Assembly (NCBI RefSeq): GCF_000027125.1
Contig: NC_017626.1
Length of the DNA: 64,000 bases
Direction: 5' to 3' (one strand)
Source: Escherichia coli 042
GTDB taxonomy: Bacteria > Pseudomonadota > Gammaproteobacteria > Enterobacterales > Enterobacteriaceae
Of this stretch, positions 39,121 to 48,369 are shown in pieces (the first letter of the stretch is position 1; each line of letters opens with the position of its first letter). The notes below the pieces were generated by a model. The model was not told where the DNA came from and did not search any database. It saw nothing but the letters and a program-made list of their open reading frames with translations. Made by a program: the position numbers and the translations under genes.

Positions 39121-39900
39121 TATTCCCACCCAGAATAACCAACTTTATTTTTATGCGGTCTCACCGCACCCCGTGATGTCGCCGGGAAGCCCCGGTAAAA
39201 AATAATTAGCATTAGAATAGTTGCGATAAGCTGCAACAGGCAGAGCCCCTTTTTTGGATTTAATAAGTCCTCACAAATAGAAGGGGCTCTTTACACTTAT
39301 CTAAGATTTTTCCTAAATCGACGCAACTGTACTCGTCACTACACGCACATACAACGGAGGGGGGCTGCGATTTTCAATAATGTGTGATGCAGATCACACA
39401 AAACACTCAATTACTTAACATAAATGTATAAGTCATACTTTTGTTTTGGGTGTATTTCAATCTGTTAAAAAGTTTTTCGCAACGCTAGCAAGCAAAAATG
39501 AAACAGGAATAATCGAAATGGGATGTTGCGCACAGTTAAAATAACTCACCGTAAATAATCATCTGCTATAAATAATCACTTTCATGCAATACCAGATAAG
39601 CTATTTTTAAACAGACACTTACCGCACAACAAACTAATTAAATACAAAGAAAGGCAACAATCAACTTAATGTTAATAAAATGTTTTACATATATTAACCA
39701 CTTGTTTAATATGGAGAATCAGTACATTATTTTCTTATAATTACAGTTGAAATCATATGATCACCGAGAGTGATTGATTAATTGTCTTTACTAATAATCA
39801 GACTAATATTTACCTGTTTGACTGAGTTGGGATTGCGTCGTTTCTCCATTAGGAGTAAAGCTTTAATGTCACCTGAAGTTCACAGAATAAGGAACAGGTT
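39121..39900. promoter_or_regulatory. flhDC class 1 control region (divergent from uspC); no IS element present
   Basis: About 780 bp, AT-rich intergenic region with no transposase ORF and no inverted repeats. Confidence 0.7.
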
Positions 39901-45217: not shown

Positions 45218-45286
45218 AACGTCTCCGTGAATCACTGGTCGTTCACACCCCCTCTGCATCATGCAGAGGGGAATTTTTTCGGCAGA

Positions 45287-46276
45287 TTACTTACCGCCTA
45301 ACCCTTTTTTCTCCAGTTCTTCTTTAAAGTTGTCACGCGTGATCAGCACCACGTCGGTAACTTCGGTGAATTTGGTCGGTTCAACACCTTTTGCGACCCA
45401 GTTGTAAAGCATTTCGCTGGACTTATAACCATGTACGTCCGGGCTTGGCAGCAGTGATCCGTAGAAGCCGGTTGCCTGTGCCTTAGACAGTTCGCTCACC
45501 GCATCCACACCGTTAATACCAATACCGATGATATCGGCTGCTTTAAAGCCTTGACCTTCCGTCGCGCGTACGCCGCCCAGCACGGTGCTGTCGTTCATAC
45601 CGACGATCAGCCAATGTTTAACTTCCGGATGTTGAACCAGCATTGAGTTGGCAGCGTCAAATGCCCCCGGGATGTCGTTAGATTTGGTAGGTACCTGATA
45701 AATTTGTTTTTCCGGGAATCCTGCAGCTTTCAGCGCATCCATAGAACCCGTAGTACGGCGACGAGCCGTATCCAGTTCGTTGGAGGTAATCGCCATCACC
45801 GCGCTTTCTTTGACATCCCAACCACGTTTCTGCATCTCTTTATACAGTTCCTGGCCCTGACGTTCGCCAATTTTGGTCGCTGCCATCATCACCAGCGGAA
45901 CGGTATCCATTGGCTTGCCTTTGGCGTTAACAAACTGGTCATCCACGGCAATGACTTTCATATCGTAGCCACGCGCTTTCGCCACGATGGCAGAGCCGAG
46001 TTTCGGGTCCGGAGTACAAATAACGAAACCTTTCGCGCCACTGGCAGCCAGGCTGTCGATAGCGTTCAATGTTTTTTCGCCATCCGGCACGGCAATCTTA
46101 ATAACTTCAAACCCTAAATCCTTCCCGGCTTTATCGGCAAACTTCCATTCGGTCTGGAACCACGGCTCTTCCGGTTGCTTCACCAGGAAACCGAGCTTCA
46201 GGTTCTCCGCCATAGCGGATTGTGACATAACGGCTGCCAGACCAATGGCTGCCAGGGCTTTAGTAAATTTGTGCAT
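45287..46276 (-). CDS. araF: L-arabinose-binding periplasmic protein
   Basis: 329 aa with signal peptide MHKFTKALAAIGLAAVMSQSAMA. Confidence 0.96.
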   Translation of the reverse strand: MHKFTKALAAIGLAAVMSQSAMAENLKLGFLVKQPEEPWFQTEWKFADKAGKDLGFEVIKIAVPDGEKTLNAIDSLAASGAKGFVICTPDPKLGSAIVAKARGYDMKVIAVDDQFVNAKGKPMDTVPLVMMAATKIGERQGQELYKEMQKRGWDVKESAVMAITSNELDTARRRTTGSMDALKAAGFPEKQIYQVPTKSNDIPGAFDAANSMLVQHPEVKHWLIVGMNDSTVLGGVRATEGQGFKAADIIGIGINGVDAVSELSKAQATGFYGSLLPSPDVHGYKSSEMLYNWVAKGVEPTKFTEVTDVVLITRDNFKEELEKKGLGGK

Positions 46277-47072
46277 GGTTCTCTCCAGCTTTAGTGTCGT
46301 TTTGTGTAGGGCAAAAACGAATGACTTTCGTTAAATTAATCGGAAAACAAAGCATTACCTTTTAACTAAAAGATAAGTGACCGTGTTGACATAGTTTTAG
46401 CGAGAAATTAATTCTCCATAGGAGAGCAATATCACATCGCAGAATTACAGTGAGAACGTGCATAAATTTAGCGGGAAAAGACATAAGGAAAAGCTCATTT
46501 GTCAGACAAATCACCGAGCGCGCAGCAGATTAATCCATAAGATTAGCCTGGAAATCCTTGTTGTCTTTGGTACCCATGCGGGATGTCTTCTTTTTAACCA
46601 GTCAATAGGCTGCATTACCTGGCGTTGAGTTTTTGAAATGGTGTAATAACCGCAACTCAAAGATGTGGAAAATGCGCGTCATTCATTTCGTCATTAATTA
46701 TCACCGTGCTCATTAATTAACAGAACACGTATACTGAGAGCCATATCGCAAAAATGAAAAAACGTTTTAAAAAATCATTGCCTCATCATGAATTCAAATC
46801 CCCCTATTAATATCAACAAGATACAAAAAGCATCATCATTAAAATTCATTGCAGTTACATTGATTTCATCAATGAAATGTAAAAATATATAAACTTGATG
46901 ATTTAAGCATTTTCTTATACCCGTTCAGACGTTATTCTTATTTCAGATCATCGTCAGAATTGACTCCACGATCACATTTCGGACCGGCAGAAAGGAATTA
47001 TTCTGCAAACAGTAATTATGGTGTTTTGATTTATCTTGCACCTCTCCACTTCTGGATATAAGGATATTAGGT

Positions 47073-47576
47073 ATGGCAACCGCTGGAATGCTTCTCAAAC
47101 TCAACTCTCAAATGAACCGCGAGTTTTACGCATCCAATCTCTACCTTCACCTGAGTAACTGGTGTTCTGAACAGAGTCTGAACGGCACCGCCACTTTCCT
47201 TCGCGCCCAGGCACAAAGTAATGTGACCCAAATGATGCGCATGTTTAACTTTATGAAGAGTGTCGGCGCTACCCCAATCGTTAAAGCCATTGATGTTCCC
47301 GGTGAAAAACTGAACTCTCTGGAAGAACTGTTCCAAAAAACGATGGAAGAATACGAGCAACGTTCAAGCACGCTGGCGCAGTTAGCCGATGAAGCGAAAG
47401 AACTGAATGATGATTCAACCGTCAATTTCCTGCGCGATCTGGAAAAAGAACAGCAGCATGATGGCCTGTTGCTGCAAACCATTCTTGATGAAGTGCGCAG
47501 TGCGAAACTTGCGGGTATGTGCCCTGTGCAGACCGACCAACATGTTCTGAATGTCGTGTCACACCAGCTGCATTGA
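47073..47576 (+). CDS. ftnB: ferritin-like protein FtnB
   Basis: 167 aa, [26 protein letters not shown]. Confidence 0.93.
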
Positions 47577-48021: not shown

Positions 48022-48108
48022 TTATCGGAACATATTGCCTGGCGGTACGTCTTTGAACGTCTTGCAATAGTTATTGAACATACTTTTCAGGATCTTGCGC
48101 AGTTTCAT
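48022..48108 (-). CDS. azuC: small membrane-associated protein AzuC (28 aa)
   Basis: The minus strand reads ATG AAA CTG CGC AAG ATC CTG AAA AGT ATG TTC AAT AAC TAT TGC AAG ACG TTC AAA GAC GTA CCG CCA GGC AAT ATG TTC CGA TAA = MKLRKILKSMFNNYCKTFKDVPPGNMFR; below the ORF-track length cutoff. Confidence 0.88.
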   Translation of the reverse strand: MKLRKILKSMFNNYCKTFKDVPPGNMFR

Positions 48109-48369
48109 CGCGGCACTCCGACTATTTGTTATGCAGGTGTTATTGTCTTTGCGCTTATAATATGACAACCATCACAAAAATCAATCTTTATGTGATGTAA
48201 ATCACACAAATACCTCTTTAATGTTATAAAAATGATAATCAAAAAGCAGCCCCCCCTTTCTGACACATACAGATGGCAAGAAATAGCGCCTGCCAGGCGT
48301 CTTTTCCGGCCATTGTCGCAGCGCTGTAGCGCGTAAAATACTGCTTTCTTTTACTCTTCTGGCTGGACC

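Follow-up and report, generated by a model that had tools for sequence, protein, structure and literature searches.

The 796-bp gap between the divergent genes araF and ftnB of Escherichia coli 042 very probably consists of two known, divergently oriented regulatory regions and of mostly unconstrained leftover DNA, and harbors neither a small RNA gene nor a small-protein gene. The gap covers positions 46277-47072 of the stretch of 64,000 nucleotides of contig NC_017626.1 analyzed here, referred to as the window, and is bordered by the ORFs of araF (45287-46276, minus strand) and ftnB (47073-47576, plus strand). Its GC content is 35.9% (whole window, 50.5%) and drops to a minimum of 28.5% over positions 46700-46899, confirming its initial annotation as a long, AT-rich and non-coding interval. 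It had been ranked among the largest non-coding gaps of the window, and is in fact the largest one: when the window is greedily covered with ORFs of 70 residues or more, no longer stretch is left uncovered, the runners-up being 771 bp (positions 39130-39900) and 458 bp long. The equivalent interval of E. coli K-12 MG1655 (1986129-1986924) also comprises 796 bp and differs by 27 substitutions, without indels, and the region is found in 5418 of the 5426 complete E. coli genomes. Conservation across genera, as reported by blastn, stops at 46561/46562 on the araF side and restarts at 46869-46877 on the ftnB side, and the gap is described below as three parts (Table 1). Its functional content has already been described for K-12: the promoter of the arabinose-transporter genes araFGH on one side, and the promoter and leader of the ferritin-like gene ftnB, under CpxR and CsrA control, on the other. 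Nucleotide diversities (pi) were calculated from 15 E. coli alleles, with four-fold sites (0.074) as the reference.

Table 1. Features of the araF-ftnB gap, in window positions
Feature	Position	Strand	Remarks
araFGH control region	46277-46562
Predicted araF 5' leader, about 110 nt	46277-46387	-	TSS placed by setting the CRP-like site at -41.5
araF Shine-Dalgarno (SD) GGAGAG	46286-46281	-	SD and start region invariant across genera
Invariant block G-N-TAATGC-N-TTGTTTT (GGTAATGCTTTGTTTT) in the predicted araF leader	46344-46359	-
Putative 40-aa ORF MSFPAKF...	46484-46362	-
Predicted araFGH core promoter GAGAATTAATTTCTCGCTAAAAC	46392-46420	-	Continuous cross-genus footprint
CRP-like site TGTGATATTGCTCTCC	46421-46436	- (araF strand)	2 mismatches to TGTGA-N6-TCACA
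AraC site araFG1, half-sites CAGTGAGAACGTGCATA and TAGCGGGAAAAGACATA	46448-46485	+	7/10 and 8/10
Variable linker between FG1 and FG2	46486-46522	.	pi 0.099, at least the four-fold value of 0.074
AraC site araFG2, half-sites CAGCAGATTAATCCATA and TAGCCTGGAAATCCTTG	46523-46560	+	9/10 and 8/10
Very weak published TSS inside FG2	46534	-	3 reads; Kim et al. 2012 supplement, K-12 version 2 coordinate 1984410
Fast-evolving AT-rich spacer	46563-46868	.	Position of the DJ-1/PfpI gene in other genera
Putative 34-aa ORF	46788-46892	+
ftnB promoter and leader	46869-47072
CpxR-like tandem box GTAAA-AATAT-ATAAA	46879-46893	+	9/10 against GTAAA-N5-GTAAA (direct reading); conserved across genera
Predicted ftnB -10 hexamer TATTCT	46933-46938	+	7 nt upstream of the published TSS; GTTATTCT conserved across genera
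ftnB 5' leader, 128 nt	46945-47072	+	TSS with 124 reads (Kim 2012 supplement)
Putative 33-aa TTG-start ORF in the ftnB leader	46960-47061	+
Leader hairpin GCAGAA-(AGGAAUUA)-UUCUGC, GGA in the loop	46987-47006	+
Two weak RNA 3' ends in the ftnB leader	47004 and 47047	+	Term-seq, Adams et al. 2021

The part adjacent to araF is kept across about 12 enterobacterial genera and contains the araFGH promoter with AraC and CRP sites that the initial annotation had expected in the gap. The AraC half-site scan that it had proposed (half-sites of 17 bp, 21 bp from start to start, scored against TAGC-N7-TCCATA) returns two half-site pairs arranged as direct repeats, araFG1 (FG1) and araFG2 (FG2), both conserved across genera as is the CRP-like site. 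FG1 is near-invariant across genera, its orientation is opposite to that of araF transcription, and the segment comprising FG1 and the CRP-like site displays a pi of 0.002 in E. coli. Both AraC sites point toward ftnB. FG2, which is also strongly conserved across genera, matches the K-12 araI site at 24 of 38 positions, a score attained by 0.07% of random 38-mers, and the two share the 15-nt word ATCCATAAGATTAGC. FG2 is reported to be nearly dispensable. A reading of FG2 as a pBAD-like promoter for a plus-strand RNA was discarded, as comparison with K-12 araBAD reveals no -10-like hexamer 20 nt past the I2-like half-site. The published TSS inside FG2 is probably noise. The linker separating FG1 from FG2 holds nine of the 27 differences from K-12, and the window carries a rare linker allele (46489-46522). 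As a whole, the segment of 286 bp bounded by the araF start and the end of FG2 represents the same locus as the K-12 araFGH promoter and differs from it at 11 positions, the nine linker positions included, with no substantive difference; the site names and the exact TSS were assigned by us from the sequence.

The predicted core promoter exhibits a -10-like TAAAAC (46399-46394, minus strand) and is devoid of any -35 match, and a consensus scan of the region did not return any sigma-70-like promoter, which fits the description of the araFGH promoter as weak, activator-dependent, and lacking a -35 element. The CRP-like site is separated from FG1 by 11 bp, on the side facing the core promoter, and is conserved across genera; its motif match is by itself not above chance level, and its assignment as a putative CRP site rests on position and conservation. 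At ParaFGH, overlap between the CRP site and the -35 region has been described (PMC2893085), and the reversed order observed here, with CRP between the AraC site and the polymerase, matches the published one. With the CRP-like site positioned in this way, we infer an araF TSS near 46387. Read toward araF, the control region would comprise FG2, the variable linker, FG1, the CRP site over the -35 position, the weak core promoter, and the leader of ~110 nt. If we combine these positions with the mechanism known from the literature, arabinose-bound AraC and cAMP-CRP would recruit RNA polymerase to araFGH.

Within the predicted araF leader, no conserved RNA structure was identified except a 5-bp helix across the SD and the start codon, the pairs of which are invariant and show no covariation. 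The 16-nt invariant block is conserved in 36 of the 36 aligned sequences, spanning ~12 genera, while its flanks are variable. The promoter-complex model offers no explanation for this conservation. Two other candidates in this leader were rejected. Pairing with Spot 42 would involve an 8-nt complement (UCCGAUUA with UAAUCGGA) of about the length expected by chance, the duplex is no more stable than those formed by shuffled sequences (fraction 0.32) or random genomic pieces, this part of the leader is not conserved, and a literature search returned no link between the two RNAs. A sigma-54-like TGGCAC-N5-TTGA motif of the Citrobacter araF leader is not conserved in Escherichia.

On the opposite side of the gap, the ftnB promoter, likewise anticipated by the initial annotation, is located by a published TSS at 46945 (K-12 coordinate 1986797), and the ensuing leader is the published CsrA-bound one. 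The CpxR-like box, centered ~59 bp upstream of this TSS, provides the ftnB promoter with a putative tandem box of the CpxR type, and ftnB has been reported as a CpxR-activated gene (PMC2731931, PMC9600279). The leader contains four GGA motifs (46981-46983, 46994-46996, 47054-47056, and 47062-47064), the last of which overlaps the SD, within AAGGA, 8 nt before the ATG. It is identical to the K-12 leader and displays no segregating site over its 128 bp among the 15 E. coli alleles (pi 0.000), and 5403 of 5416 genomes match the promoter and leader together at 99% identity or more. CsrA binds to the K-12 leader, as established by footprinting, and represses ftnB (Pourciau et al. 2019, PMC6686035). 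The TSS used here fits the 127-nt UTR of that study, to which the present analysis adds a conserved hairpin presenting the second GGA, the invariance among alleles, and two weak RNA 3' ends. This hairpin is the sole consensus helix across 17 sequences and is also present in the minimum-free-energy fold; one of its pairs is compensatory (GC to AU, in three sequences) and another changes from A-U to G-U in eight sequences. In Leclercia and Silvania, the stem is retained and the loop is devoid of GGA. Binding of CsrA to the GGA motifs, including those in the conserved hairpin loop and at the SD, would block translation in this strain, as has been shown experimentally for the identical K-12 sequence. 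Regarding the 3' ends, that at 47004 (K-12 1986856; LB, OD 0.4) lies 69 nt upstream of the ftnB start and has a Rho score of 0.49, which is not significant, and an intrinsic-terminator score of 1.39, while that at 47047 (K-12 1986899; one of the other two growth conditions) lies 26 nt upstream of this start.

The size of the gap is explained by the loss, in Escherichia, of a gene that related genera have retained. At most Citrobacter, Leclercia, Lelliottia, and Silvania loci, the araF-ftnB gap is 1246-1435 bp long and contains an intact ORF of 185 residues, and in Salmonella, which is devoid of araF, this ORF is located divergently upstream of ftnB. The ORF family is assigned to Pfam PF01965 (DJ-1_PfpI). 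The gene is absent in eight of the eight Escherichia lineages examined. Comparison with the DJ-1/PfpI-ftnB region of Salmonella, Citrobacter, Leclercia, and their relatives indicates that ~320 bp of the gap (46754-47072) are homologous (nhmmer E about 4e-38), with four elements in common (CpxR-like box, -10 element, GGA hairpin, and SD); in contrast to these genera, Escherichia lacks the 185-residue gene and its terminator, and FG2 abuts the former upstream region. In a profile search, the homology of the spacer to ancestral intergenic DNA reaches no further than about 46754. A DJ-1/PfpI-family gene divergent from ftnB would have been present in the ancestor of Escherichia, Salmonella, and Citrobacter, and the Escherichia lineage would have deleted it. 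The spacer would be the remainder of an older and longer interval, of which the ~320 bp nearest to ftnB are still homologous to ancestral intergenic DNA, the rest having drifted. A pseudogene relic in the spacer was searched for and rejected: tblastn reports hits that are out of order, with E > 0.2, and a protein HMM built from 26 orthologues returns a best E-value of 2 against six-frame translations of eight Escherichia spacers, as compared with 1.5e-24, 2.2e-24, and 1.3e-3 for known decayed Citrobacter copies.

The spacer itself (K-12 coordinates 1986415-1986720) did not return any blastn homology outside Escherichia, and with other Escherichia species it shares 46-61% identity, versus 63-73% at four-fold sites. 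Within E. coli, its diversity is ~1/3 to 2/3 of the neutral rate: pi is 0.027 in its first part (46563-46753), with 21 segregating sites out of 191 positions as compared with 54 out of 233 four-fold sites, and 0.046 in the second part (46754-46868), which is hypervariable, with identity bands of 80-95%. It might be argued that the spacer originated as an insertion of foreign DNA into the Escherichia lineage, such as what is left of a mobile element that took the place of the DJ-1 gene, given its low GC content, the absence of detectable homology between positions 46563-46753 and the ancestral interval, and an identity between species below the four-fold level. We consider this improbable: E. 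coli has a single copy of the spacer, and neither terminal repeats nor similarity to phages or genuine plasmids were identified, the matches in plasmid collections being the same locus on mislabelled chromosome-size records. Moreover, the DJ-1-proximal half of the ancestral interval is itself poorly conserved between genera, and the lengths suit a simple deletion, with an ancestral DJ-1-ftnB interval of about 500-560 bp versus 510 bp remaining. Besides deletion and drift, a more tenable view of the spacer, albeit still a doubtful one, holds that it is cis-regulatory DNA for ftnB, an extended upstream region in which H-NS would nucleate and other factors would bind to conserved islands, as in the silencing and anti-silencing of ftnA. 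Islands are indeed kept across Escherichia species amid unalignable DNA, TGTCTTCTTTTTAAC at 46584-46598 and the direct repeat TCATTAATTATCA / TCATTAATTAACA at 46691-46722, and they suggest that part of the spacer may be functional. The reduced diversity of the first part and a GC content down to 28.5% point in the same direction, as does the finding that H-NS binds and represses ftnB in Salmonella (PMC3212961). However, the spacer is otherwise essentially unalignable between Escherichia species, with an identity of 46-51%, below the four-fold level, its second part is hypervariable, and AT-rich DNA mutates more slowly, so that a lower diversity may arise without selection. No Fur box was identified upstream of ftnB, the best match (12/19) being at a level attained 80 times in the window, in line with the Salmonella ftnB promoter, reported to be devoid of a recognizable Fur binding motif (PMC3212961). 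An FNR-like palindrome, CATTGAT-TTC-ATCAATG (46857-46876), has a 3-nt instead of a 4-nt spacer and a left arm that is not conserved in other Escherichia, and an ArcA/MarA-type reading of the TCATTAATTA repeats was dismissed by eye, their 19-bp spacing and motif positions being unfitting. The ferritin gene ftnA is silenced by H-NS, with Fur acting as an anti-silencer. The gap shares with such H-NS-silenced ferritin genes (ftnA and Salmonella ftnB) the presence of an extended AT-rich sequence ahead of a ferritin-family gene, and differs from ftnA by the lack of a Fur box. By analogy with Salmonella, the leftover DNA is probably coated by H-NS and would add to ftnB silencing.

The initial annotation had further suggested that the gap might hide a small RNA or a small ORF, and had named Rfam and Term-seq among the checks. 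This suggestion found no support in Rfam, annotations, Term-seq, the TSS map, folding, or ORF conservation. That the spacer contains an independent small RNA gene is highly unlikely. The spacer is long enough for one, contains two terminator-like sites and a local hairpin at 46624-46660, and the public TSS and Term-seq sets were obtained in LB or glucose minimal medium, leaving arabinose, Cpx-inducing or other stress, and anaerobic conditions outside their scope. Nevertheless, no Rfam match in the gap is better than E = 7, and no feature is annotated there in MG1655 or in 13 other RefSeq annotations. In the TSS map, the start of ftnB and the site with 3 reads at 46534 are the sole entries for the gap, which is the transcript pattern that the initial annotation itself had set against a hidden gene, and Term-seq in three growth conditions reports the two weak 3' ends of the ftnB leader and none outside it on either strand. 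Consensus-like promoters number 0 versus 3.0 expected, and terminator-like sites 2 versus 0.9 +/- 1.1 expected. Fold z-scores of the spacer (+0.72 and +0.89) are no better than those of shuffled sequences, and the arms of the 46624-46660 hairpin change without compensation in Escherichia sp. MOD1-EC7003. A small transcript made under specific conditions is very unlikely too, be it a ~60-nt ftnB-leader RNA (46945-47004) or an arabinose-induced transcript from the AraC sites, as is the related idea that the invariant block of the araF leader is an undescribed post-transcriptional control site. The ~60-nt candidate contains two CsrA-binding GGA motifs, one of them in the conserved hairpin loop; if real, it could be a product of leader attenuation or a local CsrA decoy. 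Least credible of all is a translated small ORF, for which three candidates are listed in Table 1. The MSFPAKF... and 33-residue leader ORFs are open across Escherichia, and the first 30 codons of the former are recognizable in Citrobacter and Leclercia. However, the MSFPAKF... ORF is exactly superimposed on FG1, the CRP site, and the core promoter, upstream of the predicted TSS; its variable columns are distributed 11/11/11 by codon position, with no third-position excess, and its C-terminus and length vary between genera. Amino-acid differences in the 33-residue ORF are spread along its length in the Escherichia alignment, and other genera carry indels of 34-38 nt that disrupt it. The 34-residue ORF and all other spacer ORFs are interrupted by stops or frameshifts in sister species. 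In addition, the MG1655 RefSeq annotation has no small-protein gene in the gap, and the text of Weaver et al. does not mention the locus.

The araF-ftnB gap is an ordinary observation, of minor importance beyond a tidier annotation. What the present analysis adds to the K-12 description includes one unexplained element, the invariant 16-nt block in the araF leader, and a map of constraint in which the ftnB leader is invariant among the sampled E. coli alleles, FG2 is deeply conserved, and free variation is seen in the FG1-FG2 linker and in the part of the spacer on the ftnB side. It also provides a reason for the size of the gap, namely the loss in Escherichia of a DJ-1/PfpI-family gene that related genera have retained.

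The divergent araF and ftnB genes are separated by what the initial annotation described as an AT-rich gap of about 800 bp, among the largest of the window, and the reading frames bear this out. araF (329 aa, - strand) has its gap-side boundary at 46276 and ftnB (167 aa, + strand) starts at 47073, leaving a non-coding interval of exactly 796 bp (46277-47072) with 35.9% GC, as compared with 50.5% for the whole window, and a minimum of 28.5% at 46700-46899. Covering the window with ORFs of at least 70 aa makes it the largest uncovered stretch, ahead of gaps of 771 bp and 458 bp. The 771-bp gap (39130-39900, 35% GC) carries a perfect CRP palindrome, TGTGATGCAGATCACA, at 39383-39398. RefSeq records of MG1655 and 13 others report no annotated feature in the araF-ftnB gap. 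The locus is found in 5418 of 5426 complete E. coli genomes, and the gap differs from its K-12 MG1655 counterpart (1986129-1986924; K-12 coordinate = window + 1939852) by 27 substitutions and zero indels. The window contains a rare allele, matched at 99% identity or more over 46200-47150 by only 5 of the 5418 genomes. The differences from K-12 within the gap cluster at 46489-46522 and 46770-46834, a pattern suggestive of a mosaic produced by recombination; the araF genes are 96.6% identical.

On the araF side, a scan for AraC half-sites returns two pairs, presumably the araFG1 and araFG2 sites of the literature (FG1 and FG2 in the table), both oriented away from araF. The distal pair matches araI of the K-12 araBAD promoter at 24/38 positions, a score attained by just 0.07% of random 38-mers from the window, and shares with it the word ATCCATAAGATTAGC. 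Deletion of FG2 reportedly has only a slight effect on the araFGH promoter; its conservation across genera is at least that of FG1. If the CRP-like site is set at -41.5, the araF TSS should lie near 46387, with TAAAAC as a -10-like element; the leader would then measure about 110 nt. Relative to ParaBAD, ParaFGH has its sites in reversed order, and CRP overlaps the -35 region (PMC2893085). The cross-genus footprint comprises an almost invariant FG2, a freely varying linker (46486-46522), and an unbroken block of conservation spanning FG1, the CRP site and the -10 region, followed by a variable stretch, an invariant 16-nt block, and the conserved SD and start codon. The araFGH promoter with AraC and CRP sites expected in the gap is thus present and conserved across genera. 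The 16-nt block, located in the putative araF leader, is kept in 36/36 sequences of the alignment, drawn from about 12 genera, and is flanked by variable sequence. It lies outside any conserved RNA helix, and could serve as the -10 region of a second promoter or be bound by a protein or small RNA. In this leader, conserved RNA structure is limited to a 5-bp helix at the SD/start codon, all of whose pairs are invariant. Within the araF coding sequence, the AraC half-site-like TAGCGGATTGTGACATA (46213-46229, + strand, 8/10 match) resembles the FG1 half-site TAGCGGGAAAAGACATA (repeat D2) and has no partner 21 bp away. The interval between araF and araG contains a GC-rich hairpin, CCCCCTCTGCATCATGCAGAGGGG (45247-45275), at which Term-seq places an antisense (+ strand) 3' end (K-12 1985131); the hairpin may therefore terminate transcription in both directions.

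On the other side, the primary ftnB TSS (124 reads, 128-nt UTR; Kim et al. 2012 supplement) maps to 46945 and, together with the TATTCT element and a CpxR-like box, substantiates the anticipated ftnB promoter. ftnB is a known CpxR-activated gene (PMC2731931, PMC9600279). Its leader contains four GGA motifs and is identical to the K-12 sequence in which CsrA protects three of them, including the one overlapping the SD, and represses translation in vitro and in vivo (PMC6686035). The sole consensus helix among 17 leader sequences is a hairpin with one compensatory pair and a GGA in its loop; the entire leader folds no better than shuffles (z = 0.15).

Features of the araF-ftnB gap, with the DJ-1/PfpI gene (a 185-aa family member) found at this place in other genera
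Feature	Position	Strand	Remarks
Invariant block G-N-TAATGC-N-TTGTTTT	46359-46344	-	16 nt
ORF MSFPAKFMHV...	46484-46362	-	covers exactly FG1, CRP site and core promoter
araFGH -10-like element TAAAAC	46399-46394		inferred
CRP-like site TGTGATATTGCTCTCC	46436-46421	araF strand	two core mismatches; 11 bp from FG1
AraC site, proximal (FG1)	46448-46485	+	two half-sites, 21 bp start to start
AraC site, distal (FG2)	46523-46560	+	two half-sites, 21 bp start to start
Spacer island TGTCTTCTTTTTAAC	46584-46598		conserved across Escherichia species
Spacer 13-nt direct repeat TCATTAATTATCA / TCATTAATTAACA	46691-46722		19 bp apart; conserved across Escherichia species
CpxR-like tandem box GTAAA-AATAT-ATAAA	46879-46893		9/10 match; conserved across genera
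ftnB -10 element TATTCT	7 nt upstream of TSS 46945	+	inferred assignment
Leader hairpin GCAGAA-(AGGAAUUA)-UUCUGC	46987-47006
Term-seq 3' ends	47004, 47047	+	low read counts
DJ-1/PfpI gene (loci L009-L038)	about 1890-2630 in locus coordinates		position equivalent to window 46563

Between these two control regions lies an AT-rich spacer (46563-46868), and the gap had been considered large enough to hide a small RNA or small ORF. Neither is supported by the searches below or by public transcriptome sets from LB or glucose minimal medium. A permissive Rfam scan of the gap reports nothing better than E = 7, consensus-like sigma-70 promoters number 0 against 3.0 +/- 1.4 expected, and weak terminator-like sites 2 against 0.9 +/- 1.1. 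Term-seq data (LB at OD 0.4, LB at OD 2.0, and M63 glucose) report only two 3' ends over K-12 1986000-1986999, both in the ftnB leader. The first is located within the conserved GGA hairpin, on its 3' arm, and shows no Rho dependence (score 0.49) and no terminator signature (intrinsic-terminator score 1.39); an RNA reaching it from the ftnB TSS would measure roughly 60 nt. The TSS map (Kim et al. 2012) adds to the ftnB TSS a single entry of 3 reads, at 46534 (- strand) within FG2, and spacer RNA of both strands shows no folding advantage over shuffles (z = +0.72, +0.89). As for proteins, each spacer ORF of at least 20 aa is interrupted by stops or frameshifts, or has lost its start, in other Escherichia species. 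Two ORFs of the gap stay open: MSFPAKFMHV..., rejected as a small protein with variable columns distributed 11/11/11 by codon position and a tail differing between genera, and a TTG-start ORF in the ftnB leader, rejected because indels of 34-38 nt disrupt it in other genera. In both cases, constraint acting on DNA or RNA sites, not on a protein, accounts for the open frame. The spacer also lacks similarity to phage records and genuine plasmid records. Elsewhere in the window, the azuC small-protein ORF MKLRKILKSMFNNYCKTFKDVPPGNMFR (48022-48108, - strand) is present within the AzuR/IsrB RNA, just downstream of a perfect CRP palindrome, TGTGATGTAAATCACA (48191-48206); Rfam yields only sub-threshold matches to unrelated families for this region.

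Diversity among 15 diverse E. coli alleles is lowest in the ftnB leader (pi 0.000, 0/128 sites segregating), followed by CRP plus FG1 (0.002), the ftnB promoter (0.005), the araF leader and core promoter (0.009), FG2 (0.013), spacer 46563-46753 (0.027), spacer 46754-46868 (0.046), four-fold degenerate sites of araF and ftnB (0.074), and the FG1-FG2 linker (0.099). Identity bands across >5400 genomes agree: 5403/5416 genomes match the window's ftnB promoter and leader at 99% identity or more, and over 46754-46868 other genomes fall in the 80-95% bands or return no match. Between Escherichia species, spacer identity is 46-61%, under the 63-73% at four-fold sites, and a few islands are conserved in otherwise unalignable DNA (see table); they do not match Fur sites and, judged by eye, fit neither ArcA nor MarA sites. 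The spacer is hence largely free of constraint; its araF-side half, less diverse than four-fold sites, shows some weak constraint.

The gap was compared with 38 loci encoding FtnB relatives, one genome per species. Against Citrobacter, Leclercia and Lelliottia, blastn reports conserved blocks at 46201-46562 (73-80% identity) and 46869/46877-47150 (68-84%) and no alignment in between; an nhmmer profile of the ancestral intergenic region extends the ftnB-side homology to ~46754 (E about 4e-38). In most of those genera, araF and ftnB lie 1246-1435 bp apart, against ~800 bp in E. coli; the distance is 1101-1103 bp in two Citrobacter-related loci whose DJ-1 gene starts nearer ftnB. The additional length is accounted for by an ORF of 185 aa on the araF strand, which is assigned to the DJ-1/PfpI family (Pfam PF01965, E 9e-32) and scores slightly under the cut-off that NCBIfam sets for DJ-1 family glyoxalase III. 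Citrobacter, Leclercia, Lelliottia, Silvania and Enterobacter carry it between araF and ftnB; in Salmonella, where araF is missing, it is divergent and upstream of ftnB. None of the eight Escherichia lineages examined (E. coli, E. albertii, E. whittamii, unnamed species) carries it. Parsimony makes the gene ancestral, with a loss on the Escherichia stem. It has decayed independently in three Citrobacter genomes (L008, L015, L039) and is frameshifted in a Leclercia locus (L037). A protein profile from 26 orthologues detects the decayed Citrobacter copies (E 1.5e-24, 2.2e-24, 1.3e-3) and finds no relic in Escherichia spacers (best E = 2). The ancestral DJ-1-ftnB interval measures about 500-560 bp in most genera and 510 bp are left here from FG2 to ftnB, lengths that agree with a simple deletion. 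What the spacer holds in its first 190 bp may be the DJ-1-proximal half of this ancestral interval, altered by drift.

Others established, on identical or near-identical K-12 sequence, that araFGH is activated by arabinose-bound AraC together with cAMP-CRP, that CpxR activates ftnB transcription, and that CsrA blocks ftnB translation by way of the leader. H-NS may coat the AT-rich spacer, since it binds and represses ftnB in Salmonella (PMC3212961). The known AraC/CRP, CpxR and CsrA elements, here positioned in the window, are the conserved parts of the gap, and its non-promoter remainder occupies the position of the lost gene. The content of the gap is ordinary and essentially already known; the single addition of the present analysis is an evolutionary reason for its size, namely gene loss.
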